A DNA stretch of 64,000 nt, taken from Gemmatimonadota bacterium (GTDB lineage Bacteria > Gemmatimonadota > Gemmatimonadetes > Palauibacterales > Palauibacteraceae). Position 1 is the stretch's first letter. Each line of letters opens with the position of its first letter. The DNA is taken from NCBI GenBank assembly GCA_965116475.1, contig OZ220691.1:224001-288000 (forward strand), in the 5' to 3' direction. Of the stretch, positions 2,684-63,164 are shown piece after piece. The translations under genes were made by a program, and so were the position numbers. Below the pieces are notes generated by a model. That model saw nothing but the letters and a program-made list of their open reading frames with translations, was not told the DNA's origin and searched no databases.

Positions 2684-2812
2684 TCGACGACCTGTCTGGC
2701 GGTCCGTGGCCGCCCGTGACCGACATCGCCCGTGGGCCGTCTAGTCTCTGAAGACAGTCCCGGCGGCGAACCGGCCGCCCGGGGCGGAGACCGGAAGACA
2801 CGGGAGCTTGGG

Positions 2813-4954
2813 ATGCGGTTCGCAAACGCGACAGGAAACTCTGGAGCCCCCTGGCGGTTGCGGGGCCGGCGGCGGGTGTGGGCGGTCGGGGTGGCATGGG
2901 GCGTCTCGTTCGCCGCGCCCCCGGTCTCCGCTCAGGAGGCGGAGGTCCCGATCGATTACGACGCCGCGATCGCGCAGAACGGGATCGAGGGCAGCTACGG
3001 ATATCTGCGCGCGCTGGACGGGTCCGCGACGCTCATTCAAGGGGACACCCGCGAGCGCGTCCAGCTCGCCGTGAACGAGCCCGTCCTCGTCGGCGACCGG
3101 ATCTTCGCGTCCGGCGAATCGCGCGTCGAGATTGCGCTCGCCGATGGCAACCTCGTCCGGATCGGGGATCGGGCGGAACTTGTCTTCCGCGCGCTCGCCA
3201 ACTCCGCGGATACGAGCGATCCCGCCTCCATTCTCGAACTCGCGCGCGGGTCGCTTCAGCTTCTGGTGGCCGCGAACCCACCGGGGGCCGAATGGCCCTC
3301 CATCATCACCCCGAACGGGACGATCCGGCCGCGGGGAGCCGGCTCCTTCCTGATCGTCGTCGACGACGAACGCCGTAGCGAGGTCGTCGTGCGCGAAGGC
3401 GTGGCGGAGGTCACGACAGAGACGGAACTCGCCGAGGTTCGGCGCGGGGAGAGCCTCTTCGTCGAGGGTGTGCGAGGGGACCGGCTCCGCTTCGCGGCGG
3501 CCCCGAATCTCGATGGTCTGGAGGCGTGGGGCCAGGGGCTCGGCGACTACGCGGGCGGGGAATACACCGCTCATGTGGACCCGGACCTCCACTACGCGGC
3601 GTCTTCGCTCGGAGGGCACGGGTCGTGGGTCCATGTCGACGCGGGGGTCGCCTGGCGTCCGCGGGTGTCGACGGGCTGGGCGCCGTACCGGCACGGGCGG
3701 TGGCGACACACGCCGAGCGGGATGTTCTGGGTCTCGTACGAACCGTGGGGCTGGGTGCCCTACCACTACGGGTACTGGGACCTCGATCCCGACTGGGGCT
3801 GGATCTGGTTCCCGGGCCGGAGTTTCGCCGTCGCGCACGTGTACTGGTACTGGGGCCCGAGCTACGCGGGCTGGATTCCCTCGGGATACTACTGGCGCCA
3901 CTACCGGAACTATTACGGGAGCAGCTGGGGCTTCCACTTCGGGGTCTACGGGCACATCGGGGGCGGCTTCGGGCGCTATCGGCACTGGACCTTCCTGCCG
4001 CACGGGCGCCTCGGACACCGGCGACAGCACTTTTACTCGGTGGGCGGTTCGGACTTCGGTCGCGGGCGGAGGGCGGTCGAGCGCGGCGTGCTGCTGACGG
4101 ACTCCCGCCTGCTCGGGCGCCAGGCGCAACGGCGACCCGCGCAGACGCTCGCAAGCCTCAGGCGCGCGGTGGCCCGTGACGGGAGAACGGCCGTCGATGC
4201 GAACGGCTTCATCGATCGCGGCACGAACCTGCCGCGTGAAGTCGAACGCGTGGTGCTGCGAGGGCGCGATGGCCGGTCGGCCCGCCCGCGCGACGCGACG
4301 GCCGGGGCGCGGAGCGACCCCTCGCGGGCGACCGGCGCGCCACCGGTACGCGTTACCACGCGGTCGGCGGAGGGCGGCACCGTGCGGCTGGAGCGGCCCG
4401 GAGTGCAGCGAGCGACGCGACCCGGCGTCCAGCGGGCGACGACGCGGACCGGCGTGCAACGGACGACGCCGCCCGCGTCCGAGACCGGCGCCCGCGCGGC
4501 GATCCGGCGGCCCACGACACGGGATGTTTCCGGCGGCGCGAGACGTCCCGCCGTGCGACCCTCGATACGGTCGGGTTCCGGCGGCGTACAGCGCGCATCC
4601 CCGCGGAGGGGCGACGACGGCGTCCGCCGGATCGTCCGTCCGCGGACGGCCCGGGAGCAGCCGGCCGTTCGGCCTACGACGGCGAGGCCGTCCCGGCCGG
4701 TCCTGCGACGTCCGCCGTCGACGACGAGACCCGTGATCCGGCAATCCATCCCGCGGTCACCGCGGCCCGCGGTGCGCCCCCCCGGCTCGTCAAGGTCGAG
4801 CGGCACCGTCAGAAGATCCGGCAGCGGGTCCCGGTCCGGAGGCGCGGTCCGCCGCTCCAGCGGCAGCTCCCGATCCGGGGGCGCGGTCCGCCGCTCCAGT
4901 GGCAGTTCGCGGTCGACCGGTGCGGCCCGCGCCCGCGGCCGGTCCGGGGGTTAG
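2813..4954 (+). CDS. FecR-domain / DUF6600-like exported protein with Arg/Ser/Gly-rich disordered tail
   Basis: Signal peptide ending VSA-QE; FecR-like segment (GDRIFAS..SRVEI..ADGNLVRIG); Trp-rich WRP..GWAPY..GRW..WVSYEPWGWVPYHYGYW block. Confidence 0.8.
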   Translation: MRFANATGNSGAPWRLRGRRRVWAVGVAWGVSFAAPPVSAQEAEVPIDYDAAIAQNGIEGSYGYLRALDGSATLIQGDTRERVQLAVNEPVLVGDRIFASGESRVEIALADGNLVRIGDRAELVFRALANSADTSDPASILELARGSLQLLVAANPPGAEWPSIITPNGTIRPRGAGSFLIVVDDERRSEVVVREGVAEVTTETELAEVRRGESLFVEGVRGDRLRFAAAPNLDGLEAWGQGLGDYAGGEYTAHVDPDLHYAASSLGGHGSWVHVDAGVAWRPRVSTGWAPYRHGRWRHTPSGMFWVSYEPWGWVPYHYGYWDLDPDWGWIWFPGRSFAVAHVYWYWGPSYAGWIPSGYYWRHYRNYYGSSWGFHFGVYGHIGGGFGRYRHWTFLPHGRLGHRRQHFYSVGGSDFGRGRRAVERGVLLTDSRLLGRQAQRRPAQTLASLRRAVARDGRTAVDANGFIDRGTNLPREVERVVLRGRDGRSARPRDATAGARSDPSRATGAPPVRVTTRSAEGGTVRLERPGVQRATRPGVQRATTRTGVQRTTPPASETGARAAIRRPTTRDVSGGARRPAVRPSIRSGSGGVQRASPRRGDDGVRRIVRPRTAREQPAVRPTTARPSRPVLRRPPSTTRPVIRQSIPRSPRPAVRPPGSSRSSGTVRRSGSGSRSGGAVRRSSGSSRSGGAVRRSSGSSRSTGAARARGRSGG
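4790..4906 (+). repeat. Three imperfect 39-nt coding tandem repeats (SRSGGAVRRSSGS-like)
   Basis: Units at 4790, 4829 and 4868; GGCGCGGTCCGCCGCTCCAG is exact in units 2 and 3. Confidence 0.75.
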
Positions 4955-4964
4955 TCCACCGGGG

Positions 4965-5534
4965 TCAGGGGTCCGGCCACACGGCCGGATCCCGCGCCAT
5001 CTCGGGCTCCGGTTCGACGCCGAGCGCCTCGACCATGCGGACGTAGTAGTTGAAGAAGCCGACCACCTCGGTCGCGGTGAGGATCTGCGCGTCGGTCCAG
5101 CCGACCTCCCGTAGCTCGTCGATGTCCCGCCGCCCGGTGGAGGTCGGCTCACGCGTGATCGCCACCGCATAGTCCATCAGCCGGCGCGTCTTCTCGTCGA
5201 GCCGGGCCGTGCGGTAGTCGGTACGGATCGCGCGGGCCAGCTCAGCGTCTCCGGTGGCCTGACGGAGATCCTCTCCGTGCGCCTCCGTTCAGTAGAAGCA
5301 GTCGAGTTCGCGCGAGGTCACGGTCGCGAGCATCTCCCGCACGTCCCGCCCCAGCGGTCCCGGCGCCAGCATCAACGCCTCGTAGAGCCGGATCGAGGCG
5401 CGCATGACGGGCGGGTTCAGGCTCTGGATGCCGATCACGTTGAAGACGCGCCCGGCGCGGCGGACGGCCTTCTCGTACTCGCGGGCGAGGAGCCCCTTCG
5501 CTTCGTCGGGAGCTACCGTCTCGATATGCGGCAT
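4965..5534 (-). CDS. AhpD-like / carboxymuconolactone decarboxylase family peroxidase-related selenoprotein (CFYU, Sec at codon 82; 189 aa)
   Basis: ORFs 5289-5534 and 4965-5177 are in the same frame, separated only by TGA 5289-5291 at the second Cys position of the CxxCxxxH motif (CFY-U-TEAH); AGGAGG RBS; hairpin downstream of the UGA. Confidence 0.88.
5262..5278 (-). promoter_or_regulatory. Putative bacterial SECIS element
   Basis: ACGGAGA-GGA-TCTCCGT perfect 7-bp stem starting 10 nt after the UGA, loop beginning GG. Confidence 0.75.
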
Positions 5535-5595
5535 TTCGCCTCCTGTGGACGATGGATCCGAGGTGCGAATCGGCTCATCGGCGGCCGCGGCTCCC

Positions 5596-6624
5596 TCAGC
5601 GGACGAGGAAACCGTCCCGCCACGGATCCTCCGGATCGACGAGGAACTCGTGGCGGCCCGTGACCCACGCCCGGCCACCCACCTCCGGCACGACCGCCGG
5701 ATGACCGCCGACGGTCGTCGTGTCCACGATCCGTCCGCTGAACCGGCCGCCGATGATGCTCTCGACAACGATCTCCGCGTCCCCGAGGATCTCGCCCCGG
5801 GCGCGAAGGATGGCCAGACGGCCGCTCACGGCGGTCCCGGTCGGGCTGCGGTCGAGTTCTCCGTCCGCGAAGATGCAGACGTGCCGCGAGTGGTGTGCGG
5901 CATCGGCCGCCGCGCCCGTGAACACGGTGCCGTAGAGAAAGCCGAGATCGGGATCGTCCGGATGAGAGATGTCGCCGGCGGCGGACGAAGACACCGCGCG
6001 CGTGATCCGGCGCCCCGCGTCGATGAGGTCGGCCGCGCAGCCGGGGGTGAGGGAGAGCCCGAGGGCGTCCGCATCGACGTAGGCATAGAACGCGCCGCCG
6101 AACGCGAGGTCGTACGGCACCTTGCCCAGCCCCTCGACCTCGACGGCCCGCTCCAGCGCGGGCGCGAAGGAGGGCACGTTGAGGAACCGGACCTCGCGGA
6201 CCCGTTCGCCGTCCAGGATGGCGGTGGCGCGTACGAGTCCGGCCGGCGTGTCGATCGTCACGGGCCGCTCCCTCCCCGATCCGTCGATCCAGCCGGCTTC
6301 GGCGGCGATCTTCGCCACGCCGATGATCCCGTGACCGCACATGGTCGAATAGCCCTCGTTGTGCATGAACAGGACGGAGAAGTCCGATCCGGGCCGCACG
6401 GGCGGCATCACGAGGCAGCCGTACATGTCCGCATGCCCACGCGGTTCCCACATGAGGGCGCGGCGGAGTTCGTCGTGCTCCGCCCGCGCGACGCGACGCC
6501 GTGCGAGGACCGTGTCTCCATCCAACTCCGGGAAACCCGCCACGATGACGCGGAGCGGCTCTCCCTCGGTGTGGGCATCGATCGTCTCGATGCGAAGCCA
6601 GTGTTCGGGCGCGGTCCAGATCAT
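5596..6624 (-). CDS. Proline racemase family protein, Cys/Thr type (probable trans-3-hydroxy-L-proline dehydratase)
   Basis: IDAHTEGEPLR, EPRGHADMYG, MCGH and DRSPTGT motifs; start at ATG 6624 (GAGGAG upstream). Confidence 0.85.
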   Translation of the reverse strand: MIWTAPEHWLRIETIDAHTEGEPLRVIVAGFPELDGDTVLARRRVARAEHDELRRALMWEPRGHADMYGCLVMPPVRPGSDFSVLFMHNEGYSTMCGHGIIGVAKIAAEAGWIDGSGRERPVTIDTPAGLVRATAILDGERVREVRFLNVPSFAPALERAVEVEGLGKVPYDLAFGGAFYAYVDADALGLSLTPGCAADLIDAGRRITRAVSSSAAGDISHPDDPDLGFLYGTVFTGAAADAAHHSRHVCIFADGELDRSPTGTAVSGRLAILRARGEILGDAEIVVESIIGGRFSGRIVDTTTVGGHPAVVPEVGGRAWVTGRHEFLVDPEDPWRDGFLVR

Positions 6625-7831: not shown

Positions 7832-8905
7832 CTATCGGTAGTTCTCCATCAGGGCGTCCAGCGCCTCGGCGCCCGGGCACAACTCCTCGAAGGGGAGGTT
7901 CCACAGCGGCCGATCGACCGTCCCCAGCACGTCGTGCAGGTCCCTCGACTCCGGATCCACGTAGAGGAGCCCGGTCGGAACCTCGCCTGCGTTCTGCCGC
8001 TCGCGCAGGTAGCCGTACACGGCGTCCCTGTCCGTCGCGTCGTAGTCGCCCTCGACCTGCCGGAAGCGGATCACGCTGCCGTCGTGCATGCGGACGTCGC
8101 GTACGTCCTCGGAGCCGATATCGGCCGTGATCTCATCCGCCGGGGGGACGAAGTCCTTCGGGGCCACGAACGCGGCCTCGACCGCCTCGCGGAAGTGCTC
8201 GCGCGTGTAGGCGTAGCTTTTCGTCGACCCGACGTGGTCGTTGAAGGTCACGCACGGAGAGATGACATCGACGAGGGCCAGGCCCGGGTGCCGGATCCCG
8301 GCCTTGATGATGGGAACGAGCTGGTTCTTGTCGCCGGAGAAGCCGCGGGCCACGAAGGTCGCGCCGATCGAAAGCCCGAGCAGGGCCGGATCGATGGGGG
8401 GCTGTTCGTTCGGCACGCCCCGCTTCGACTTCGAGCCCATGTCGGCCGAGGCCGAGAACTGGCCCTTCGTCAGGCCGTAGACCCCGTTGTTCTCGATGAT
8501 GTAGAGGAGATTGAGGTTGCGCCGCACCGCGTGGCAGAGCTGGCCGAGGCCGATCGAGAGCGAGTCCCCGTCGCCGGAGACGCCTATGTAGACGAGGTCG
8601 CGGTTCGCGGCGTTCGCCCCGCTCGCGACCGACGGCATGCGCCCGTGCACGCTGTTGAAGCCGTGCGATTCGGACATGAAGTAGGCGGTCGTCTTGGACG
8701 AACAGCCGATCCCGCTCATCTTCGCGGCCCGGTGCGTGGGGATCGCAAGCTCCCACGCCGCTTCGATCAGCGCCGCCGTGACGGAGTCGTGGCCGCACCC
8801 CGCGCACAGCGTGGACATCACGCCCTCGTAGTCGCGGCGCGTGAGCCCCAGTTCGTTCTTCTCCAGACTCGGGTGGAAGACCCGCGGCTTCGCAATGTAC
8901 GTCAT
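7832..8905 (-). CDS. korB: 2-oxoacid:ferredoxin oxidoreductase subunit beta
   Basis: LCAGCGH, SGIGCSSK, VHGR, TPP motif GDGD...NNGVYGLTKGQ, ISPCVTFN. Confidence 0.93.
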   Translation of the reverse strand: MTYIAKPRVFHPSLEKNELGLTRRDYEGVMSTLCAGCGHDSVTAALIEAAWELAIPTHRAAKMSGIGCSSKTTAYFMSESHGFNSVHGRMPSVASGANAANRDLVYIGVSGDGDSLSIGLGQLCHAVRRNLNLLYIIENNGVYGLTKGQFSASADMGSKSKRGVPNEQPPIDPALLGLSIGATFVARGFSGDKNQLVPIIKAGIRHPGLALVDVISPCVTFNDHVGSTKSYAYTREHFREAVEAAFVAPKDFVPPADEITADIGSEDVRDVRMHDGSVIRFRQVEGDYDATDRDAVYGYLRERQNAGEVPTGLLYVDPESRDLHDVLGTVDRPLWNLPFEELCPGAEALDALMENYR

Positions 8906-10743
8906 GCACCCACTCCTTCGGCCGTCTCCACCGCGAGACCGAGGCGGTCTTTAACGCCCGCGATGACGTGTCGCGCGCTCAGCGGGAGCCCCCCGTAGCG
9001 GAGGACCGACGTGAGCTTCTCCTTCGAGGCCGGCGTCTCCAGCGTGAGCAGCGACTTCAACTGCGCGTCCCGGTTCTGTTCGATGACGATGTTGAGGTCG
9101 TGGGCCTCGATGAAGCGCGCGATTTCGGGCGCGAACGGGAACCCGCGGATCCGCATGTAGTCGAGCCGGAGCCCGTCCTCCGCCTCCATGCGCTCGATGG
9201 CCTCCCGCGCCGCGCCGTCGCAGGCGCCCACCGTGATGAGTCCGTATCGCGCGTCCGGCCGCGACCGGATCTCGGGGGGAGGCACGGCTTCCGCCGCGCT
9301 GTCGATCTTCTCGCCGATGCGATCGATGACTTCCTGGTATTCGTCCGGATCCTCGGTGTACTTGCCGTACTTCGTGTGGCCGGAGCCGCGCGTGAAGTAG
9401 GCGCCCTTCGGATGCTCGCCCGGGATTGTGCGATACGGAATCCCGTCCCCGTCCACGTCCAGGTACCGATAGAAGGTCTCGACCTCCGCCAGCGCCTCGG
9501 CGTCGAGCACCTTCCCGCGATCCGGCCGGTACTCGTCATCCCACCGGAAGCGGGGCACGACCCAGTCGTTCATCCCGATGTCGAGGTCCGAGAGCACGAA
9601 CACGGGCGTCTGGAAGCGTTCCGCCAGGTCGAACGCCTGTACGCTGAACTCGAAGCACTCCGCCGGATCCTTCGGATACAGGCAGAGGTGCTTCGTGTCC
9701 CCGTGCGAGGCGTAGGCGCAGAGGAGGATGTCGCCCTGCTGCGTGCGCGTCGGCATCCCGGTCGACGGGCCGACGCGCTCGATGTCGAAGAAGACGCACG
9801 GGACTTCGGCGTAGTACGCGAGCCCGATGAACTCGGTCATGAGCGAGATGCCGGCCCCGCTCGTCGCCGTGAAGGCGCGGGCTCCGGCCCACCCCGCGCC
9901 GATCGTGATGCCGGCCGCCGCGAGTTCGTCCTCCGCCTGCAGGATCGCCGCCCGGCTCCGTCCCGTCTCCTCCTCGACGCGCAGACGCCGGCAATAGGCC
10001 GTGAAGGCGTCGACGAGCGAGGTCGAGGGCGTGATCGGATACCACGCCGCGACCGTGGCGCCCGCGTAGACGCAGCCCAGCGCCGCCGCCGTGTTGCCGT
10101 CGATCAGGATCGAGTCGCGCGTGGCATCCATCCCCTCGAGCCGGATCGGCAGGGGGCACTCGAAGTTCTCGGCCGCGTAGTCGTAGCCGAGCCGGATCGC
10201 CTTGAAGTTCGCGTCGAGCAGATGACGCTTCTTCTCGCCGAAGGTCTCCTCGAGCAGTTCCCGGATCACATCCATGTCGATGTCGAGGAGGGCGGCGAGG
10301 GCGCCCGTGTAAGCGATGTTCTTCATCAGGATGCGCGTGCGGCCGCCGTCGAAGGTCTTCACGCACATCTCGGCCAGCGGCACGCCGAGGAAGGTCACTT
10401 CCTCCCGCCGCAGCGTGTCCGCCATGGGCCAGCTCGAGTCGTACAGCAGCCAGCCGCCGGGCACGAGTTCCTCGATGTCCTGCGAGTAGGTCTCCGGGTT
10501 CATCGCCACGATGAGGTCGAAATCCGGGGTGCGCGCGACGTGGCCCGACCCGTTCACGCGGATCTCGTACCAGGTGGGAAGGCCCTGGATGTTCGAGGGG
10601 AAGACGTTTTTCCCGGATACCGGCACGCCCATCCGAAAGATCGACTGCATGATGAGGCCGTTGGCGCTCGCGGAGCCCGTCCCGTTCACGGTGCCGATCT
10701 TGAGCGCGAAGTCGTTCACGCGGTCCGTCTTCATGTCGGCCAT
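8902..10743 (-). CDS. korA: 2-oxoacid:acceptor oxidoreductase subunit alpha
   Basis: YPITPS, QAEDELAA, TATSGAGISLM, GPSTGMPTRTQQGD; stop overlaps korB start. Confidence 0.93.
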   Translation of the reverse strand: MADMKTDRVNDFALKIGTVNGTGSASANGLIMQSIFRMGVPVSGKNVFPSNIQGLPTWYEIRVNGSGHVARTPDFDLIVAMNPETYSQDIEELVPGGWLLYDSSWPMADTLRREEVTFLGVPLAEMCVKTFDGGRTRILMKNIAYTGALAALLDIDMDVIRELLEETFGEKKRHLLDANFKAIRLGYDYAAENFECPLPIRLEGMDATRDSILIDGNTAAALGCVYAGATVAAWYPITPSTSLVDAFTAYCRRLRVEEETGRSRAAILQAEDELAAAGITIGAGWAGARAFTATSGAGISLMTEFIGLAYYAEVPCVFFDIERVGPSTGMPTRTQQGDILLCAYASHGDTKHLCLYPKDPAECFEFSVQAFDLAERFQTPVFVLSDLDIGMNDWVVPRFRWDDEYRPDRGKVLDAEALAEVETFYRYLDVDGDGIPYRTIPGEHPKGAYFTRGSGHTKYGKYTEDPDEYQEVIDRIGEKIDSAAEAVPPPEIRSRPDARYGLITVGACDGAAREAIERMEAEDGLRLDYMRIRGFPFAPEIARFIEAHDLNIVIEQNRDAQLKSLLTLETPASKEKLTSVLRYGGLPLSARHVIAGVKDRLGLAVETAEGVGA

Positions 10744-12807: not shown

Positions 12808-14052
12808 ATGCAAGAGCAGCCCGTGCACACGGTTGTCGGAGGGGCTCACCTCTTCCGGCGCGATACGGCGGCCAAGCTCGGACGGATCGCGGGACGCTAT
12901 CTCGACCGGTACGCGGCGGACCCTGCCGCCCTCCGGGAGGCCCTCGGGACTCGGCTCCCCTCCGGGACGGCGGAAGCGGTGCACCGGCGCGTGCGCGCCA
13001 AGCTCCAACGCGAACCGGTCGAGAGCTTCCTGATCGACTTCGAAGATGGCTTCGGCGCCCGGTCCGAGGCGGAAGAAGACGAGGCGGCGGCGCTGGCGGC
13101 AGCGGAAGTCGCGGCGGGGGCGGCGGCCGGCAGCCTCCCGCCCTCGCTGGGAATCCGCATCAAGTCGCTGTCCGAAGTCACCGGCGAGCGGGCGTTGCGC
13201 ACGCTCGAGCGCTTCCTGGCGGCACTCGCGCGGACCCGGCGCGACTTGCCGGACGGGTTCACCGTGCTCCTTCCGAAGGTCGTCGCGGCCGGTCAGGTGG
13301 CGAGGCTCGCCGGGGCCCTGGACCGGCTCGAGACGACGCTCGGGCTGCCGGAGAAGCGGGTGGCGATCGACCTCATGATCGAAACGCCGCAGTCACTGGT
13401 GGCGCCGGACGGACGGATCGCCGTGCCCGGGCTGGTCGCGGCGACGGACGGGCGCTGCCGCACCGTGCACCTCGGAGCGTACGACCTCACGGGCGCCGCC
13501 GCGGTCGCGGCGGAAGATCAGACCCTGGGGCACCCGCTGTGCGACGTGGCGAGGCAGCTTCTGCAGCTCTCGCTCGCCGGGACCGGCGTCCAGCTCTCGG
13601 ATGGGGCGACGAACGTGCTCCCCGTCGAACCGCATCGTGGAGAGACCGACGTCTCGCCGGCCGAGCGGGCGGAAAACAGGGCCGTCGTGCACGACGCCTG
13701 GCGCCTGCACTACGCCGATGTGCGGCGGTCTCTGAGCCAGGGGTTCTATCAGAGTTGGGACCTCCACCCGGCCCAGCTCGTCTCCCGCTACGCGGCCGTC
13801 TTCTCCTTCTTCGTCGAAGGACTGGACGCGGCGGCGAGCCGGCTCGACCGCTTCGTGGCCGCCGCGGGACGGGCCGTCCTGACGGGATCGGTGTTCGACG
13901 ATGAAGCCTCGGGCCAGGGCCTGCTGAACTTCTTTCTCCGGGGGCTCGCGAGCGGCGCCCTGACGGCGGAGGAGGCGGCGCGCTCCGGCCTCACCGCCGC
14001 GGAACTCGAGACGCGCTCCTTCCGCAAGATCCTCGAGCGGCGCCGCGGGTGA
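12808..14052 (+). CDS. HpcH/HpaI aldolase / citrate lyase-like (DUF6986-type) protein
   Basis: QPVHTVVGGAH, IDFEDGFG, LPKV, MIETPQ, HLGAYD, LSDGATNVLP, WDLHPAQL. Confidence 0.78.
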   Translation: MQEQPVHTVVGGAHLFRRDTAAKLGRIAGRYLDRYAADPAALREALGTRLPSGTAEAVHRRVRAKLQREPVESFLIDFEDGFGARSEAEEDEAAALAAAEVAAGAAAGSLPPSLGIRIKSLSEVTGERALRTLERFLAALARTRRDLPDGFTVLLPKVVAAGQVARLAGALDRLETTLGLPEKRVAIDLMIETPQSLVAPDGRIAVPGLVAATDGRCRTVHLGAYDLTGAAAVAAEDQTLGHPLCDVARQLLQLSLAGTGVQLSDGATNVLPVEPHRGETDVSPAERAENRAVVHDAWRLHYADVRRSLSQGFYQSWDLHPAQLVSRYAAVFSFFVEGLDAAASRLDRFVAAAGRAVLTGSVFDDEASGQGLLNFFLRGLASGALTAEEAARSGLTAAELETRSFRKILERRRG

Positions 14053-15035
14053 TCGCGGCCTGGATCGAGCGCGGCGCCGTCCACGTGCGCGACGACCTCC
14101 CGCGGCCCGCTCCAGGGCCCGGGGAGGCCGTCATCCGGGTCCTGATGGCGGGGATCTGCGGGACGGACCTGGAGTTGCTGCGCGGATACGGCGACTTCTC
14201 TGGGATTCCGGGGCACGAGTTCGTCGGACGCGTGGAGGAGGGGCCGCCGGAGTGGGTTGGCGCCCGCGTCGTCGCCGAGATCAACGTGACCTGCCGCTCG
14301 CGAAGCTTCGAACCTCTCTGTGCCAGTTGTGCCAACAGCCGGCCGACCCACTGCCTTCGCCGCGAGGCGATCGGCATCCACGGGCGCGACGGCGCGTTCG
14401 CCGAATGGCTGCGGGCGCCGGTCGCCAACCTGCATCGCGTGCCGGAGCCGGTTCCGGACGAGGTGGCCGTGTTCGCGGAACCGATGGCGGCCGCCTGCCG
14501 CGTCCTGCGCCAGATAGAGACCGGGATCGAGCGTGGCCGCGTGAACCGGGCGCTCGTCGTGGGCGCGGGACGGCTGGGGCAACTCGTGGCGCGCGTGCTG
14601 GCGATCAGGGTGCCGGCGCTGGAGGTCGCCGGTCGTTCGGAGCGGAATCTGGCCCGGGCCCGAGCTGCCGGCCTCGTCGCGGGGCCGGTCACCGCCGTGG
14701 AGGATGCGGCCTACGACCTCGTCATCGAATGCAGCGGCGCGGCGGCCGGGTTTGCGGTTGCCCGCCGAGCCGTTCGGCCGCGCGGAACGATCATCCTCAA
14801 GAGTACATACGAAAACGAGTTATCCGTCGACATCTCATCCGTCGTAGTAGATGAGATACGGCTCCTCGGCTCGCGGTGCGGGCCCTTCGAGGACGCCCTG
14901 TCCGCACTGGAGCGAAGGGATCTTGAGGTCCGCGATCTCATCGACGACCGGCTCCCGCTCTCGGCCGCCCCGGAGGCCTTCGACCGGGCGGCGCAGGCGG
15001 GAATCGCGAAGGTGCTCCTCGTCCCCTGGCTGTAG
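14049..15035 (+). CDS. Zinc-dependent alcohol dehydrogenase (MDR family)
   Basis: AGICGTDL, GHEFVG, structural Zn cysteines, VGAGRLG; GTGA overlap with upstream gene. Confidence 0.9.
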   Translation: MIAAWIERGAVHVRDDLPRPAPGPGEAVIRVLMAGICGTDLELLRGYGDFSGIPGHEFVGRVEEGPPEWVGARVVAEINVTCRSRSFEPLCASCANSRPTHCLRREAIGIHGRDGAFAEWLRAPVANLHRVPEPVPDEVAVFAEPMAAACRVLRQIETGIERGRVNRALVVGAGRLGQLVARVLAIRVPALEVAGRSERNLARARAAGLVAGPVTAVEDAAYDLVIECSGAAAGFAVARRAVRPRGTIILKSTYENELSVDISSVVVDEIRLLGSRCGPFEDALSALERRDLEVRDLIDDRLPLSAAPEAFDRAAQAGIAKVLLVPWL

Positions 15036-19435: not shown

Positions 19436-20955
19436 CAGGGGCCGCCTCCCCCGGCGAGCGCTTCGGCGGGCGCGGCGGAGCGCCAGCGTTCGGGGTGGGC
19501 TTCGAGCCGTTCCACGGCCTCCGCGAGAACCTCGAGCGCCAGGTCGATGGTGTCGAGGTGCGTGCGGAAGGCGAGCGCCGCCATCCGCAACCAGAACGTC
19601 CCATCGATCGTCGTCGAGGAGAAGAAGATCCTCCCATCGCGATGCGTCTCTTCCACGAGAGCCTGGTTGAAGGCGTTCGCGTCACCCGACTCCGGCACCC
19701 AGCGGTAGGTCACCACCGAGAGTTGAGGCTTCGGACCCACTTCGAATCCGAGCGCCCCGACCTCGCCGTGAAAATACCGGGCGAGTTCCAGCTTCTCCTC
19801 GAGGCAGGCCCGAAAGGGGGCTTCTCCGTGCAGGAGGAGCGGCAGCCAGACCCGAAGCCCGCGAAAGTGCTTCGTGAGTTCAGGGGATACGGCGGCCGGC
19901 GAACGACCTCCCCACTCGGACTCGACCGTGTCCTGCAGGTAGCTGGCGTAGTAGGCGTGGGCATCCTGGAGCGCCTCGCCGTCGCGGATGAGCACGGCGC
20001 CGGTGCCGTACGGCAGGAACATTCCCTTGTGCGGATCGAGCACCAGCGAATCCGCGCGCTCCATCCCGGTGAGCACGCGCCGGCTGCCCTTCACGAGAGT
20101 GAAAAAGCCCCCGTATGCCGCATCGACGTGGAACCAGAGACCTTCGCGCTCGCACACATCGGCGATGCGGTCCAGGGGATCGACCTGGCCGGTATCGGCG
20201 GTACCGGCCGATCCGAGGACGAGCCACGGTCGAAGCCCCCGTGCCCGGTCCTCCGCGACGAGTTCCGCGAGTGAGTCGGGACACAGCCGGAGGTCCCGGT
20301 CGCGGGACACCTCGCGCCGGACGGCCTCCGCGAGGCCGGCCACGCGGACCGCCTTGTGCAGGCAGTGGTGTGTGTGGGCGGAGGAGTAGACGACGGCCCG
20401 CTCGTAGTCGCGAGCCCGGAGCCCGGCCGCTTCCCGCGCCGTAACCACCGCGATCAGACTGGCGATGGAGCCGCCCGAAGCGAGGTTCCCGTCGGCCCCG
20501 GCGGGGAATCCGACGAGCGACGCCATCCAGTCGAGGATCAGGTCCTCCATCTCGACCGCGCCCGGCCCGGTGAATCGTACGCCCGCGTATTCGTTCGTCA
20601 CCGCGGCCAGATAGTCCCCCAGCGACGAGGCGTAGATGCCTCCGCCCGGGATGTAGCCGAGATGCCCGCCGTGCGAGGGCACGAGGCCGACGCCCACCAC
20701 GGACTCGTCGATCCGGTCGATGAGTCCGGCCAGGGGCTGCGGCCCGCGCCCGAATCCGAGCTTTCGGATCTCCCGGACGGCGGACTTGTCGTGCCGGTAG
20801 GCGAGCCGTTCGGGGAGTCCGTCGAGGAACCGTTGCGCATAGGCGTGCGCCTCGCCCATGAGGCGGTCGCGCTCGCCCGCGTCGGGGTCGAGCGGCCGCG
20901 CAGCCTCCTCCAGTTCCAGGATCCGGGACCGCTGCCGACTTGAGATCGAGCGCAT
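19435..20955 (-). CDS. PLP-dependent group II amino acid decarboxylase
   Basis: SGGSIASL, GSAGTADTGQVD, WFHVDAAYGG, DSLVLDPHKGM (PLP lysine). Confidence 0.9.
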   Translation of the reverse strand: MRSISSRQRSRILELEEAARPLDPDAGERDRLMGEAHAYAQRFLDGLPERLAYRHDKSAVREIRKLGFGRGPQPLAGLIDRIDESVVGVGLVPSHGGHLGYIPGGGIYASSLGDYLAAVTNEYAGVRFTGPGAVEMEDLILDWMASLVGFPAGADGNLASGGSIASLIAVVTAREAAGLRARDYERAVVYSSAHTHHCLHKAVRVAGLAEAVRREVSRDRDLRLCPDSLAELVAEDRARGLRPWLVLGSAGTADTGQVDPLDRIADVCEREGLWFHVDAAYGGFFTLVKGSRRVLTGMERADSLVLDPHKGMFLPYGTGAVLIRDGEALQDAHAYYASYLQDTVESEWGGRSPAAVSPELTKHFRGLRVWLPLLLHGEAPFRACLEEKLELARYFHGEVGALGFEVGPKPQLSVVTYRWVPESGDANAFNQALVEETHRDGRIFFSSTTIDGTFWLRMAALAFRTHLDTIDLALEVLAEAVERLEAHPERWRSAAPAEALAGGGGP

Positions 20956-48354: not shown

Positions 48355-48484
48355 ACCACCGATGTCCGCCCCCGGCTCAACGGGCTCTCAACGGCGGAAA
48401 ACCCTTTTCGTGATGTCAGCGTCTGTACAGGTTGAGTGGTCAGGCCTGGCGAAGCCCAGGCTGTCCCTGCCCCGGAGGTGTGCG

Positions 48485-50731
48485 ATGTCGACGCGTTCCC
48501 GCCGATCCGGCCTGAGGGCCGGACTTTTTCTTCCGCTCGTCGTGTTTGCGGGCGCGCTGCTCGGAGCGTGTGGGGACGGTGCCGCTCCCCCCGACTACAC
48601 GGTCGACGAACTCGAGGCGGCGAAGCAGCAGCTTCGGGACCATGCGCGGCTGCGCACCTTCGAGGCCGGCAAGCTGTTCGGCGAAGCGTGGGTCGCCCGC
48701 GCTCCGAACGACGCGGAACTCCGAGGCCTCTACGCCTACCAGCTCGTGGGCTGGGGACTGTCGAAGGAGACCCACGAGCAAGCCGACGCGATTCTGGCGG
48801 ATGACCCCCAGAATCCGTGGGGTCTCTATACGCGGGCCTACGCCCACCTCGTTGACAATGAGGCCGGACCGGCGCACGAGCTGGCCCTGCAGGCGTGGGA
48901 GGCGTCACCGCAACCTGAATTCGCCTTCCTCCACCTGAACGCGTTGCGGAGGGACGACTTCGAGGCGGCGCGTGAGTTCCTTGAAGGGCTCGACGATGAG
49001 ACCCGCGGTTGGCCGGAGGTGCTCCGCATGCAGGCCGAACTGGAGTCCCAGGCCCGCTATGAACTGGACGACCCCACGTGGGCGGATTCCAGCCGGGCGA
49101 CGTGGGCCCTGTTCAGGGAGAAGTTCCCGGACCGTGTGCTCGGGTACACGAGGCTGGCCAACGAGGCGTATCAGGCCCGGAACATGGACGAGTGGACGCC
49201 GCTCATGGAGGCCGCGCTCGAGCTCGCGCCGGGGTCGGGGGAGGTGCGGAGCCAGCACTGGCGAGGTCTGTGGATGTCCGAACTCCTTCCCGCAGAGGAA
49301 CGGCGGGCGGCGGTGGAGGCGAGCATGGCGGCCTATCGGGAGGCGAGCCCCGAGACCGCGGAGGGCCTGCAGACCATGGCCACGATGTACCGGCAGATGG
49401 ATGACGAAGAGCGCGCGGCCGAACTGGACGCCCGGATCGTGGAGAGCGATCCGGCGAGCTATCACGCGATGCTCGCCTACCTCGCGGAGACGCGGAGGGC
49501 GAGTAGGCAGCTACAGGAGATGTGGCAGGCGCACGGCGAAGATTCGCCGGAATACCGCGCCGAACTCCCCGCCGTTCGCGATGCGGCCTACCGCTACCTG
49601 GAACGCCCGCTATACAGCGACCGCTTCACCGGCGGCGTGTACCTCGACCTCTACCAGGCTCTCGAGGGGATGGACCCCGTTCCCGCGGAGGAGTTGGCCG
49701 AGGCGATTCGTGGAACCGTGAAATACGAACGCCTCAATCCCCACATCACATTCGGCGAAGCTCCGCTCGCGATGATCGATCACACGCCCTACGCGCTCGA
49801 AGCGGCGGAGATCGTCCGCGAGGGCATGCCCGTCATGATGGAGCGCGTGATGGAGTCACGCGACTTCTACGACACGGAAGGCGAGTTCGACCAGGCGCTC
49901 CGCTTCTATCTGAGTGGCGTCTACGACGTGATCGGCTGGGCCTACTTCAAGGCGGGTCGCACCGACGACGGGCGCCACACGCTGGAGCGCGCGCTGGCAA
50001 TCAATGATCGCAGCCGGGATGCCAGGTATCACGCGGGTCAGGTGTACGAGCAGTTGGCCGCCGAGGCGAAAGTGGCCGGAGAAGCCGAGTCCGCAACCGA
50101 GTGGCTGGACAAGGCCGAGGATTCCTACATCGCCGGCTTCGGCGCCTCCCGGGGCGAGAACCCGAACGAGGCGGCGCTCGAAGCGCTCTATGAGAGCCGC
50201 AACGGGAGCCGCGAGGGGATCGAGGAGTATCTCGCGACGCTCGACGAGCGCGACCGGATCCGGCGGCGCGAGCGTATCCTCGAATCACGGGTAGAGGCGG
50301 CGGGGACGTACGAACCGTTCACGCTCGCGCGGTTGGATGGCGAGATGGTCGATTCCGCCGACCTCGAGGGGAAGATCGCCGTGCTGCACTTCTGGGGGAC
50401 GTGGTGCGGCCCGTGCATCGTCGAGATGCCGGAATACCAGAAGTTCGACGAACGCTACCGCGACGACGCCGAGGTCGCCGTGCTCTCGATCAGCAACGAC
50501 CGCACGAACGACGTGATCGAGGACTACCTCGCGAAGAACAACTTCGACTTCACCGTGCTCGTGGACGACGACTACGTGACGCGCGCCGGCGTGAACGCCT
50601 GGCCCACCACCTGGTTCGTCGACCGTGAGGGCTACATCCAGTTCGTGAAGATCGGCACCGCCCTGAAGCTCGACGAAGAGTTCTCCTGGCGCGTCGAGGC
50701 GCTCCGCGAAGAGACGACCAGCAGCCCTTGA
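48485..50731 (+). CDS. TPR-repeat lipoprotein with C-terminal TlpA-like disulfide reductase domain (paralog 1)
   Basis: Lipobox LGAC; helical repeats (DVIGWAYFKAG..YHAGQVYE); HFWGTWCGPCIVEMP; GGAGGT RBS. Confidence 0.85.
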   Translation: MSTRSRRSGLRAGLFLPLVVFAGALLGACGDGAAPPDYTVDELEAAKQQLRDHARLRTFEAGKLFGEAWVARAPNDAELRGLYAYQLVGWGLSKETHEQADAILADDPQNPWGLYTRAYAHLVDNEAGPAHELALQAWEASPQPEFAFLHLNALRRDDFEAAREFLEGLDDETRGWPEVLRMQAELESQARYELDDPTWADSSRATWALFREKFPDRVLGYTRLANEAYQARNMDEWTPLMEAALELAPGSGEVRSQHWRGLWMSELLPAEERRAAVEASMAAYREASPETAEGLQTMATMYRQMDDEERAAELDARIVESDPASYHAMLAYLAETRRASRQLQEMWQAHGEDSPEYRAELPAVRDAAYRYLERPLYSDRFTGGVYLDLYQALEGMDPVPAEELAEAIRGTVKYERLNPHITFGEAPLAMIDHTPYALEAAEIVREGMPVMMERVMESRDFYDTEGEFDQALRFYLSGVYDVIGWAYFKAGRTDDGRHTLERALAINDRSRDARYHAGQVYEQLAAEAKVAGEAESATEWLDKAEDSYIAGFGASRGENPNEAALEALYESRNGSREGIEEYLATLDERDRIRRRERILESRVEAAGTYEPFTLARLDGEMVDSADLEGKIAVLHFWGTWCGPCIVEMPEYQKFDERYRDDAEVAVLSISNDRTNDVIEDYLAKNNFDFTVLVDDDYVTRAGVNAWPTTWFVDREGYIQFVKIGTALKLDEEFSWRVEALREETTSSP

Positions 50732-50778
50732 CCGGGACGCTCCGAACCGCGATTGCATGCGGATCCTGGAGGTACAGC

Positions 50779-53019
50779 ATGTCGCTCCGCTCCCTTCGGC
50801 CCGGCCTCCGGGTCGGACTTTTCCTCGTCTGCGCTGCCCTCGCGAGCTGCGGCACGCCACCCGAATACACACCCGACCACACGCCTGAGGAACTCGAAGC
50901 GGCGAAGGCCGAGCTTCGGGATCACATACGCCTGCGCACCTTCGAGGCGGGCCTTCCCTTCGGCGAGGAATGGGTCGCGCGAGCCCCCCGGGACGCCGAA
51001 CTCCGGGCCCTCTACGCGGAACAACTCGGGGGTTGGCGGCTGTTCAAGGAGATTCGGGAGCAGGCCGACGCGATCCTGAACGATGACCCGGAGAACCCCT
51101 GGGGCCGGTATACGCGAGCCCTGGAGTTCTTCGCCCAAGGCGACTGGGAGCTTGCGGCCGAGCCGAGTCTCCAGGCCTGGGAGGCGCTGCCGCGCCCGGA
51201 GTTCGCTGCCGCGTACCTGCAGGCGACGATGGGCCGCGGCGTTGAAGAAGTTCGTGCGTTCCTGGTTTCACTCGACTCCGCCACGCGCGTGGCACCGGAA
51301 GTCCTGCGCAGACAGGCGGAGCTGGAGTCGTGGGCCCAATACGAACTCGACGACCCCGCGTGGGCGGACTCGAGTCTCGCGACCTACGCAGAGCTGCGCG
51401 AACGCTGGCCGGACCACGTGGACGGCTATCTGGGCGCTGCGGAAGACCTGTTCCGCGCCAATCGGGCAGAGGAGGCGCTGCCGCTGATCGAACGGGCCGT
51501 CGCGCTCGCCCCCGGCTCATTGGACGTCCGGCAGTGGCATTGGTGGATCCTGTTCGAGTCGGGTGTGCTGCCGGCCGAAGGGCGGCGCCCGGCCGTCGAG
51601 GCCAGCATCGCGGCGTTCCAGGACGCGGGGCCCGAATCCATCCGCGGGCTCTCGGCGACCGCGAGCATGTACCGGGACATGGAAGACATGGAGCGTGCGG
51701 AAAAACTCGAAGCTCTGGTCGTCGAGCGCGCTCCCCTCAGCCGCCACGCATCGCTGATATACGCGCGCGAGTACAACGCCGCGCGTAGCGAGCTGAACCG
51801 GCTCTTCCAGGCTGAAGGCCGCGATTCCCCGGAATACATGGCGCAGCTCGAAGTGGTGCGCGCCGCCGTAAACCGCTTTCTCGAGCGACCGCTGTACTCG
51901 GACCGACCCAAGGCAAGCGCCTACATGAGCCTCTACTTCGCGCTCCGGGACATGGATCCGGTGCCGCCGGAAGAACTGGCCGAAGCCGTACGGGGACTCG
52001 TCGCGTACAACGACCTGAACCCACACATCACATTTGGATCCGCGCTCATCGACATGGTGGAATCCACCCCGTATGCGCTGGAGGCGGCCGAGATCGCACG
52101 GAATCACGGGCTCAAAAACGCCGTCGACCGCGCCCGAGAGTCGCGCAACTCCTTCGATACCGAGGGAGAGTGGGAACAGTTCCTTCGCTACTACCTGAGC
52201 ATCGTCCACGATGCGATGGGCTGGGCCTATTTCAAGGCAGGACGGGTGGAAGACGGGCTGCACGCGCTGGAGCGCTCTCTCGTGCTGACGGAGTCGAATC
52301 GGGAGACCCGATATCACCTCGGACAAGTGTACGAACACTTCGCCGACCGGGCGGACGGGAATGGAGACGCCGAAGCGGCCATCGAGTGGCTGGACCGGGC
52401 GGAGGACTCCTACATCGCCGGCCTCGGAAGCACTCGGGTGGGCGAGAACCCCAGTCAGTCCGCGATCGAAGCGCTGTACGAGCGTCGCAACGGCAGCCGC
52501 GAAGGGATCGACGAATACCTCGCCACCCTCACTGAGCGCGACCAGATCCGCCGCCGCGAGCGGATCCTTGAGTCGCGGGTGGAGGCGGCGGGGACGTACG
52601 AGCCGTTCCGGTTGGCGCGGCTCGACGGGTCCATGGTCGACTCCGCCGACCTCGATGGGAAGGTCGCCGTGGTGCACTTCTGGGGCACGTGGTGCGGCCC
52701 GTGCATCGTCGAGATGCCCGAGTACCAGAAGTTCGACCTCCGGTACCGGAACGACCCCGATGTCCGCGTGGTCTCGATCAGCAACGACACGTCACGTGAC
52801 CTCGTCGAAGAATACCTCCAGCGAAACGACTTCGACTTCCAGGTGCTGATGGATGACGGCTACGTTCAGCGGGCCGGGATCGGGGCCTGGCCGACAACGT
52901 GGTTCGTGGACCGAGATGGATACATCCAGTTCGTGAAAATCGGCAACACCTCGAAGCTGGACGAGGAATTCTCCTGGCGCGTCGAGGCGCTCCGCGGCGC
53001 TCGCCTCGACCTCCCCTGA
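50779..53019 (+). CDS. TPR-repeat lipoprotein with C-terminal TlpA-like disulfide reductase domain (paralog 2)
   Basis: Lipobox LASC; collinear with paralog 1; HFWGTWCGPCIVEMP; GGAGGT RBS. Confidence 0.85.
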   Translation: MSLRSLRPGLRVGLFLVCAALASCGTPPEYTPDHTPEELEAAKAELRDHIRLRTFEAGLPFGEEWVARAPRDAELRALYAEQLGGWRLFKEIREQADAILNDDPENPWGRYTRALEFFAQGDWELAAEPSLQAWEALPRPEFAAAYLQATMGRGVEEVRAFLVSLDSATRVAPEVLRRQAELESWAQYELDDPAWADSSLATYAELRERWPDHVDGYLGAAEDLFRANRAEEALPLIERAVALAPGSLDVRQWHWWILFESGVLPAEGRRPAVEASIAAFQDAGPESIRGLSATASMYRDMEDMERAEKLEALVVERAPLSRHASLIYAREYNAARSELNRLFQAEGRDSPEYMAQLEVVRAAVNRFLERPLYSDRPKASAYMSLYFALRDMDPVPPEELAEAVRGLVAYNDLNPHITFGSALIDMVESTPYALEAAEIARNHGLKNAVDRARESRNSFDTEGEWEQFLRYYLSIVHDAMGWAYFKAGRVEDGLHALERSLVLTESNRETRYHLGQVYEHFADRADGNGDAEAAIEWLDRAEDSYIAGLGSTRVGENPSQSAIEALYERRNGSREGIDEYLATLTERDQIRRRERILESRVEAAGTYEPFRLARLDGSMVDSADLDGKVAVVHFWGTWCGPCIVEMPEYQKFDLRYRNDPDVRVVSISNDTSRDLVEEYLQRNDFDFQVLMDDGYVQRAGIGAWPTTWFVDRDGYIQFVKIGNTSKLDEEFSWRVEALRGARLDLP

Positions 53020-60416: not shown

Positions 60417-60815
60417 CTATCCGACGGTTCGGACCAGTCCGGACTCGATGATGCGGCGGTCCCGGGTCAGAAGCGTGGCGCCCAGGGCCCTGGCCGTCGC
60501 GACGATCGTCCTGTCCGCGGGATCGCGGTGGAACGAATCCGGCAGGGCCGCGATCTCCGAAGCGATGGCCGGCGATATCCCCTGCCGCCGAACCAGCGGA
60601 GGCGCCACGGCCTTCTCCAGCCAGTCGCGCAGCGGGATCGACAGCCGGATCCGGCCGAGACCGCACAGCGTCGCCACCTCCAGGAGAGAAATATCCGAAA
60701 CGATCAGGGGCGTCCGGCCGTCGGCCGCTTCGATGATCTCCCGTTGGGCCGCGGAGAGGCGACCCGAATCCTCGAACCACCAGATCAGGATGTGCGTGTC
60801 CAGCAGCGGCGTCAC
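60417..60815 (-). CDS. vapC: Type II toxin-antitoxin system VapC (PIN domain) toxin
   Basis: LLDTHILIWW, ISLLEVA, HRDPADRTIVATA, LLTRD; GTGA overlap with the antitoxin. Confidence 0.92.
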   Translation of the reverse strand: MTPLLDTHILIWWFEDSGRLSAAQREIIEAADGRTPLIVSDISLLEVATLCGLGRIRLSIPLRDWLEKAVAPPLVRRQGISPAIASEIAALPDSFHRDPADRTIVATARALGATLLTRDRRIIESGLVRTVG

Positions 60816-61051
60816 TTCCCCAGCATCTCCCAGTGTTCCTCGGGAATCGCCGGCCCGACGATATCGCCGTGCACGGTAACGGTCCCGATCAACTCCTCCT
60901 GCGGGTACTCGGAGGCGGAATGGCTTGGCGGGACAAGTTCGGCGACCGGCCGACCCCGTTTCAGGATGACGATCCGTTCACCGGTATCGCGCACCCTGTC
61001 GAGGATCGCCAGGCACCTGGCTTTGAAGTCGGAAGCGTTGATCGTTTCCAT
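60812..61051 (-). CDS. Phd/YefM family antitoxin
   Basis: INASDFKARCLAILDRV..TGERIVILKRGRPVAELVP. Confidence 0.92.
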   Translation of the reverse strand: METINASDFKARCLAILDRVRDTGERIVILKRGRPVAELVPPSHSASEYPQEELIGTVTVHGDIVGPAIPEEHWEMLGK

Positions 61052-61087
61052 ATGACCAGACTTGACGACCAGTCATCCGATTGTCAA
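61052..61087 (-). promoter_or_regulatory. Probable promoter/operator of the toxin-antitoxin operon (possibly leaderless)
   Basis: TTGACA at 61087-61082 on the minus strand, 30 nt before the ATG; no SD; ATGAC...GTCAT inverted and GACCAG direct repeats. Confidence 0.5.
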
Positions 61088-61152
61088 CCCTCGGCTCCTC
61101 CGAGTCCTGGTATTGGTTTGGCGGAGGAGGACGCGCGCGTTACGGTGGGGGC

Positions 61153-62604: not shown

Positions 62605-63164
62605 CCGCTCCGACCGCGGGCAGCCCTCCGACACCGGCGACGCCGGCGACTGTCCTCCACGACCCCACCTCCGAACTCGCCCCCGAGATGCGCCCGCGGC
62701 GCGCGCCTCCTCCGTCGCTCGAAGGACGGGTGGTGGCGCTCCAGGGGATCGGAAAGCTCCGCAGCGACGAGTTCCTCGACCACGTGAAGGCGCGGCTCGA
62801 AGCGCGCGGCATCGCGACGATCCGCACCGACAAGCCGACCAACGCCCGGCGGGCATCGACCGAACTCCTGCAGAGGATCGCCACCGAGGCCGATGTCGTG
62901 GTGCAGGCGCTGGCCGATTGAGGGTCCTGCACGTCGTGCGGTCTGCACGACCTCAGAGACCTCGATGAACGCGGGATCCCCGGCTGCTTCGTCGTCACGA
63001 CCGAGTTCGAGGAAGCCGCGCGCAGCCAGTCCCGCTCGCTCGGCTTCGAGCCCGGCATCGTCTGGGTCCCGCACCCGATCCAGAACCGCACCGCGGCGGA
63101 ACTCGAGGCGCTGGCCGAGGAGGCGATCGACCCGATTCTGGCCATGATCACCACCACGGACTGA
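62601..63164 (+). CDS. UGSC family selenoprotein (Sec at codon 107; 187 aa)
   Basis: In-frame TGA 62919-62921 reads ALAD-U-GSCTSCG; the frame stays open with high GC3 to TGA 63162-63164. Confidence 0.88.
62933..62951 (+). promoter_or_regulatory. Putative bacterial SECIS element
   Basis: GTCGTGC-GGTCT-GCACGAC perfect 7-bp stem starting 11 nt after the UGA, loop beginning GG. Confidence 0.78.

Follow-up and report, generated by a model that had tools for sequence, protein, structure and literature searches.

The locus considered here raises the question of what a TGA codon is doing in the middle of an otherwise open reading frame: whether it ends a small gene, marks a lesion or a sequencing error, is decoded as a standard amino acid, or specifies selenocysteine (Sec). 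The window, by which we mean the whole stretch of 64,000 nucleotides that was analyzed, carries on its minus strand a gene that an ORF listing under translation table 11 splits into two pieces (5289..5768 and 4965..5177), just as the preliminary description had reported. On translation, the frame that begins with the ATG at 5534 runs open to 4967–4965, and nothing interrupts it except a single in-frame TGA at 5291–5289. The 37 codons between this TGA and the next ATG (5177), which had been claimed to be open and in frame, are present as such and encode TEAHGEDLRQATGDAELARAIRTDYRTARLDEKTRRL. Reading through yields a product of 189 amino acids containing the string DCFYUTEAH, and the earlier claim that this restores the CxxCxxxH motif of AhpD as CFYUTEAH agrees with the translation, in which the motif appears as C79-F-Y-U82-T-E-A-H86. 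The features of the predicted gene are these:

4965–5534, minus strand: the whole predicted AhpD-like selenoprotein gene, from ATG 5534–5532 through 189 codons to the terminal TGA at 4967–4965, as obtained by translation.
5289–5291, minus strand: the in-frame UGA at codon 82, read as selenocysteine on the basis of TGA conservation in this column and of Cys homologues.
5277–5300, minus strand: the active-site motif C79-F-Y-U82-T-E-A-H86, with residues invariant in 11 full-length sequences.
5334–5339, minus strand: conserved R66-E67, upstream of the active-site motif and invariant in the same 11 sequences.
5539–5544, minus strand: a Shine–Dalgarno sequence, AGGAGG, visible in the letters themselves and separated from the ATG by 5 nt.

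It is very probable that positions 4965–5534 of the minus strand hold one intact gene of the AhpD-like selenoprotein family (TIGR01926 / COG2128), with a CxxU active site and with a hairpin downstream of the UGA that serves as its SECIS element. This reading follows from the frame itself, the family match, the fold, the conservation of the TGA, and the conservation of the hairpin together with its cost in codon choice. The actual insertion of Sec at codon 82 we infer from these same lines of sequence evidence.

The family call, an AhpD/CMD-like peroxidase, is upheld by profile and by structure. The read-through protein matches the NCBIfam model TIGR01926 (peroxidase-related enzyme) at 131.4 bits against a cut-off of 81.8, with residues 4–178 aligned to positions 3–178 of a 178-position profile, and matches the Pfam CMD family PF02627 at 1.4e-9 (38.2 bits against a cut-off of 23). 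An AlphaFold model computed from an 11-sequence alignment (pLDDT 81.5) has eight helices and superposes on 6k40, an AhpD-like protein of Deinococcus radiodurans, with a TM score of 0.82, the structural relatives as a group scoring 0.79–0.82; the protein thus has both the CMD domain and the all-helical AhpD fold. In the alignment of the 11 full-length sequences, R66, E67, C79, Y81, and H86 are invariant. By sequence, the relatives in the PDB are 2pfx (9e-24), 2oyo, 6k40, 3c1l, and 2prr, with identities of 26–34%, and in the two alignments printed the CFYC/CLYC of 2pfx and 2oyo stands opposite CFYU, which places U82 at the position of the second Cys.

A hairpin of 7 bp with a GG-initiated loop had also been described 10 nt past the UGA, and precisely such a structure, ACGGAGA/GGA/UCUCCGU, is found at 5278–5262, separated from the UGA by the 10-nt spacer ACGGAGGCGC. 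Its parts are as follows:

5262–5278, minus strand: the putative SECIS upper hairpin, ACGGAGA / GGA / UCUCCGU, 7 bp, with 17 nt from UGA to loop and a folding energy of −9.0 kcal/mol.
5252–5287, minus strand: a predicted lower-stem extension, CGG.GGC ... GCC.CCG, from the minimum-free-energy structure of the window sequence (−19.4 kcal/mol) and seen in the window only.

The criteria for bacterial SECIS elements set out in PMC13188914 are a loop of 3–9 nt, a stem of 4–16 bp, a G in the first two loop positions, a distance of 16–37 nt from the UGA, and an energy of at most −7.5 kcal/mol. The window hairpin, with its 3-nt GGA loop and the stem length, distance, and energy just listed, lies within every one of these limits, so that the claim of a SECIS-like hairpin holds against a published model; all seven pairs are also present in the five closest loci. 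The lower-stem extension is absent from the RNAalifold consensus of the six sequences that share the hairpin.

Agreement with such a model is readily produced in a window of 69.9% G+C. Both strands together contain 1127 UGA triplets; an uninterrupted hairpin satisfying these criteria lies downstream of 199 of them (17.7%), and in 71 cases (6.3%) such a hairpin has a stem of 7 bp or more. Fold energy compared with shuffled sequence was unremarkable (z = −0.17 over 60 nt, −0.93 over 131 nt) and was dropped as evidence for the hairpin, z-scores being uninformative at 70% G+C. A search of the window with Rfam, looking for a curated SECIS model or a tRNA-Sec, returned no matches at the gathering score. 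Taken alone, the window hairpin is weak evidence for Sec.

The codons in which the stem is written carry a different kind of information. The hairpin occupies CAC GGA GAG GAU CUC CGU (peptide HGEDLR). When this peptide is recoded synonymously under the codon usage of the window, taken from 10650 codons in 22 window ORFs, all seven pairs survive in only 0.23% of the versions (P = 0.0023). Two of the codons that the stem needs are rare ones, GAU (20% of the codons for Asp) and CGU (4.3% of those for Arg). For comparison with relatives, a contig profile scan of genomes yielded 600 matched stretches, 589 of them confirmed as relatives, and the best 80 of these (L001–L080) were kept. All seven pairs of the hairpin, here termed type A, are retained in six of the six sequences that have it, namely the window, L001–L004, and L006. 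There is no compensatory change among these six, the only variation being G-U/A-U at one pair, and the structural evidence for the type-A hairpin therefore rests on codon choice and conservation.

The preliminary description had added that two folds are possible, since the 3′ arm could pair instead with an ACGGAG directly after the UGA. That ACGGAG is indeed there; the fold that it would form is weaker (−7.2 against −9.0 kcal/mol) and is not conserved, the five relatives reading ACCGAG, ACCGAA, ACCCAG, ACGGAA, and ACCCAT at this place. We rejected the alternative ACGGAG/CUCCGU pairing, which is probably a matter of chance.

If UGA is decoded at codon 82, the residue inserted could in principle be a standard one, and a read-through or reassignment to Trp, Gly, or Cys, with no involvement of selenium, is the reading to be weighed first. 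The protein databases give it some foothold. An exhaustive search returned 2943 matches at E ≤ 0.001, and among the best 150 representatives the Sec column holds Cys in 106, Gly in 12, Ser in 8, Trp in 5, Leu in 4, and Asp and Asn in 1 each, the remainder being 11 sequences that begin past the column, 1 that stops just before it, and 1 with a gap. A word-based search with 20 matches gave Cys in 7, Trp in 4, and Gly in 1; three others end right after C-x-Y, one has an internal gap, and four are fragments from beyond the column. The window itself also shows no Sec machinery: none of selA, selB, or selD was found among the 45 window ORFs scanned, and ARAGORN detected no tRNA-Sec in the window, its only tRNA being a tRNA-Arg. 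Against this, TGA is the terminator of 29 of the 44 closed ORFs of the window, some of which match profiles to their last residues, and there is therefore no general reassignment of TGA. The Trp and Gly residues, for their part, were probably written by gene callers running under tables 4 or 25. In many database entries (P0005–P0009, P0023, P0026, P0028, and others) the Sec column holds Trp or Gly, or the protein is broken in two at that point; such entries are probably artefacts of gene calling, with TGA translated under tables 4 or 25 or taken as a stop. What fits Sec is a hairpin conserved at the distance of a SECIS, together with a second UGA-containing gene of the window that belongs to a known selenoprotein family, and we consider a standard amino acid at codon 82 highly unlikely.

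This second gene belongs to the UGSC family. When the window was scanned for TGAs lying in frame between coding-like stretches, three candidates emerged, one of which, at 20272–20274 on the plus strand, was rejected as an artefact lying antisense to a decarboxylase gene (19438–20955). The UGSC-family features are the following:

62601–63164, plus strand: a second predicted selenoprotein gene, of the UGSC family, with its Sec UGA at 62919–62921 (codon 107) in the motif AD-U-GSC.
62933–62951, plus strand: a predicted hairpin, GUCGUGC / GGUCU / GCACGAC, 11 nt past that UGA, in the centroid structure.

The product matches the Pfam family UGSC (PF24696) at 118 bits against a cut-off of 25, and the NCBIfam model NF041046, "UGSC family (seleno)protein", at 120 bits, just under its cut-off of 125; the TGA falls in the eponymous U-G-S-C motif. 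The ATG of the gene overlaps, as ATGA, the TGA stop of an upstream ORF of 507 residues (61081–62604), for which no family match was found beyond a weak thioredoxin one (E 0.0039).

This genome presumably encodes selABCD outside the window, a view to which the UGSC-family gene lends indirect support. Among relatives, the AhpD-like homologue has a tRNA-Sec no more than 10 kb away in 3 of the 56 loci scanned (at 626–722 in L017, 1363–1458 in L062, and 13726–13822 in L072), and in L072 the tRNA-Sec is adjoined by selA (13861–14898; 431.7 bits against 267.9). These finds indicate that carriers of the AhpD-like family possess the machinery for Sec.

A further possibility is that a TGC or TGT codon for Cys has turned into TGA, either in a gene now dead or through a base-call error. 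TGA and TGC are one base apart, Cys is the commonest residue at the Sec column in the wider family (the 106 of the best 150 matches noted above), and the closest Cys forms, P0002 and P0003, differ from the window protein in the motif only at the Sec residue or nearby. The comparison of genomes nevertheless leaves this explanation with very little probability. TGA stands in the codon-82 column in all 80 of the loci kept as the best of the 589 confirmed relatives, within the context C-x-Y-TGA-x-x-x-H, in 68 of them and in the other 12 alike; the carriers come from about eight phyla in all (Acidobacteriota, Gemmatimonadota, Chloroflexota, Planctomycetota, Actinomycetota, Fidelibacterota, Myxococcota, and Verrucomicrobiota). 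Two independent and nearly identical public fragments, P0010 (100% identity) and P0083 (98%), likewise terminate at ...DCFY. Past the TGA the window gene keeps a coding signature, with a GC3 of 0.85 and conserved residues, and it keeps the hairpin in the rare codons described above. The Cys homologues that one would look for opposite the UGA are found, both in those 106 representatives and in the CFYC/CLYC of 2pfx and 2oyo, with the UGA at the second position of CxxC. At the level of sequence, this distribution of TGA and Cys is the classical pattern of a Sec/Cys pair, which rules out a private nonsense mutation.

That the locus consists of two separate small genes, an N-terminal one of 81 residues and another of 70 residues starting at ATG 5177, is barely credible: the table 11 listing does yield both pieces and many public predictions are halves (among the best 150, 11 begin past the column and 1 stops short of it), but the 37 codons from the TGA to ATG 5177 are conserved, with H86 invariant and HGEDLR common, and one profile (TIGR01926) and one fold cover both halves.

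On the reading that codon 82 specifies Sec, the type-A hairpin turns out to be one of two that the family uses in this region. Across all 81 sequences the type-A structure pairs in 50% of cells, no better than in shuffles, and is therefore confined to a small clade. The other 75 loci have instead GACCUC, a six-nucleotide loop CGKGNN, and GAGGUC, 24 nt from the UGA, in codons for Asp-Leu-Arg-x-Glu-Val. This type-B hairpin, counted over all 81 sequences, is paired in 92% of cells; shifting the partner columns lowers this to 23–53%, and none of 500 shuffles attains the observed value. Two of its pairs show compensatory change from C-G to U-A on both sides, in 11 cells (e.g., GACUUC...GAAGUC and GAUCUC...GAGAUC), and a seventh pair (columns 21/40) covaries likewise. 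The SECIS criteria are passed by 75 of the 81 family sequences; in the remaining six the same hairpin is present but built of weaker pairs.

The two types draw on the same codons. In 75 of 81 sequences, the Asp-Leu-Arg codons (GAY CUC CGN) form the 5′ arm and pair with a downstream GAGGUC; in the window and its five relatives they form the 3′ arm and pair with an upstream ACGGRGA. The two hairpins are mutually exclusive within the 48 nt from the TGA in L001–L080, and the type-A hairpin sits 7 nt nearer to the UGA (17 vs. 24 nt from UGA to loop).

The 81 Sec forms, with X standing for Sec, were placed together with 11 Cys forms in a quick maximum-likelihood tree of 92 rows. Here the window belongs to a clade of seven (SH-aLRT 96), made up of five type-A Sec forms together with P0002 and P0003 and nested within the type-B radiation, in a tree that does not fix the position of L006 and has several Cys rows on long branches. 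P0002 (59% identity) and P0003 (57%) read CFYCTEAH and CFYCMEAH, and their place inside the clade of the window suggests a recent change from Sec to Cys. Because the type-A clade is nested in type B and holds these two Cys forms, it suggests a swap of the SECIS followed by a Sec-to-Cys reversion. Whether the SECIS was in fact rebuilt around the same Asp-Leu-Arg codons within one selenoprotein family, from their use as a 5′ arm to their use as a 3′ arm, we put at even chances. The pair of alternative hairpins sharing these codons is the only point here that may count as mildly new.

The window gene groups in the tree with Acidobacteriota copies, and 17 other Gemmatimonadota copies lie in a different clade. 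The KorA protein of the window (8905–10743) is 94% identical to a protein from a Gemmatimonadales MAG and 89% identical to one from Candidatus Palauibacter, which assigns the genome to Gemmatimonadota. Horizontal transfer, or descent from an old paralogue, is possible for the AhpD-like gene.

In bacteria, the SECIS hairpin is bound by SelB carrying Sec-tRNA(Sec), which competes with release factor 2 in delivering Sec when a ribosome arrives at the UGA. In the mechanism that we propose for the window gene, the hairpin 10 nt past the UGA, lying inside the coding sequence, would act as such an element and would bring the complex of SelB, GTP, and Sec-tRNA(Sec) to the ribosome at the moment when the A site receives the UGA, and insertion at codon 82 would thereby outcompete release factor 2. 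The product would be an all-helical thiol–selenol oxidoreductase of the AhpD/CMD fold, in which Sec82, together with Cys79, His86, and Glu67, may form a selenenylsulfide redox center. Sec82 and Cys79 would cycle between the selenol/thiol state and the selenenylsulfide, and in doing so may reduce peroxide or an oxidized partner protein.

The genomic surroundings of the gene bear on what such a partner might be. No ahpC or peroxiredoxin gene was found among the 45 window ORFs scanned, so the association that would place the protein with the AhpC-reducing AhpD of the Mycobacterium tuberculosis type is absent from the window. The gene is flanked by a gene of the proline-racemase family (5596–6612) and by a convergent FecR-like ORF. 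Clustering of 2099 flanking ORFs gave no neighbor common to most loci, no real neighbor occurring in more than 19 of the 81; the largest clusters consist of antisense shadow ORFs and of C-terminal halves of the AhpD-like gene itself.

Several other features of the window may be recorded. ORF 2732–4954, which is convergent to the AhpD-like selenoprotein gene, encodes an Arg/Gly-rich protein of 740 residues, and owing to a direct repeat, some 45 nt long, at its 3′ end (4806–4905, plus strand), the C-terminus of this protein contains RSGGAVRRSSGSS two times. At 48362–50728 and 50728–53016, on the plus strand, two adjacent genes encode paralogous proteins some 770 residues long, both with a ResA/TlpA-like thioredoxin domain at the C-terminal end; this pair (48362–53016) gives a weak match to a "WAxxUGC" selenoprotein model and has no in-frame TGA. 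A gene for a Phd-family antitoxin (60815–61051, minus strand) is followed by a 132-residue ORF on the same strand (60420–60815) for which no family match was found; the two may form a toxin–antitoxin pair.

If the two ORF fragments are one selenoprotein of 189 residues, the annotation of this locus needs correction accordingly. The genome would then decode UGA as Sec, and other split genes, such as the UGSC-family gene at 62601–63164, should be read again in the same way. The family to which the window gene adds one more member is already among the most abundant of prokaryotic selenoprotein families. And if both hairpins work, they provide a natural example of a coding-region SECIS that moved without the loss of Sec: two hairpins built on the same codons amount to a small natural experiment in SECIS evolution under coding constraint.

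How the window protein relates to known systems can be stated by degrees of likeness. M. tuberculosis AhpD is alkylhydroperoxidase D, the reductant of AhpC, and its catalytic set Glu-(x11)-Cys-x-x-Cys-x-x-x-His is one that we take to correspond to E67, C79, U82, and H86 of the window protein. The two share the CMD/AhpD fold, but they are distant in sequence, and there is no ahpC near the window gene. The NCBIfam model NF041238, "AhpD_rel_CFYUT", for an alkylhydroperoxidase-related (seleno)protein, describes a related AhpD domain and has in its name the CFYUT of the window motif; its profile, however, spans 357 positions, of which the window gene matches only 218–341, at 44.7 bits against 175, and membership was rejected.

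The nearest studied relative is DR1765 of D. radiodurans (6K40), which, together with the "peroxidase-related proteins" 2PFX, 2OYO, 2PRR, and 3C1L from structural genomics, has the same fold and the same motif position; the difference is that these proteins have CxxC where the window protein has CxxU. DR1765 is itself only 12% identical to M. tuberculosis AhpD, and the review that gives this figure reports at second hand that the protein protects D. radiodurans from H2O2: the mutant is H2O2-sensitive, and complementation is far poorer when both Cys residues of CxxC are mutated (PMC8945050).

For the hairpin, the window structure resembles the SECIS of E. coli fdhF and its recognition by SelB in its position 3′ of the UGA and in its G-rich loop. 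The fdhF element is a stem-loop that closely follows the UGA within the coding sequence and has its G-rich apical loop at a set distance. The window hairpin differs in that its sequence is unrelated, it is short (17 nt), and it has no evident bulged U.

The closest likeness is to the AhpD-like selenoprotein family itself. That such proteins exist, as the preliminary description had stated, has been in print since 2005, when work on the Sargasso Sea added to the known selenoprotein families an AhpD-like protein (COG2128) with CxxU, represented by 27 sequences (PMC1088965). In the 2008 GOS survey, AhpD-like 1 is given with 299 selenoproteins and 902 Cys homologues and counted among the most abundant families (PMC2398784); a 2022 review also includes the family (PMC9312934), a 2026 review (PMC13188914) and BSepDB (PMC13326102) list it with TIGR01926, and the UGSC family appears in the same published tables. 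Common to the window gene and this family are the TIGR01926 profile, the CxxU motif, homologues with Cys in place of Sec, and, a short way past the UGA, a SECIS hairpin whose apical loop begins with G. We see no essential difference between them, the hairpin of the window and its five relatives lying 7 nt nearer to the UGA, and the evidence supports the window gene as a real and correctly read further member of this known family.
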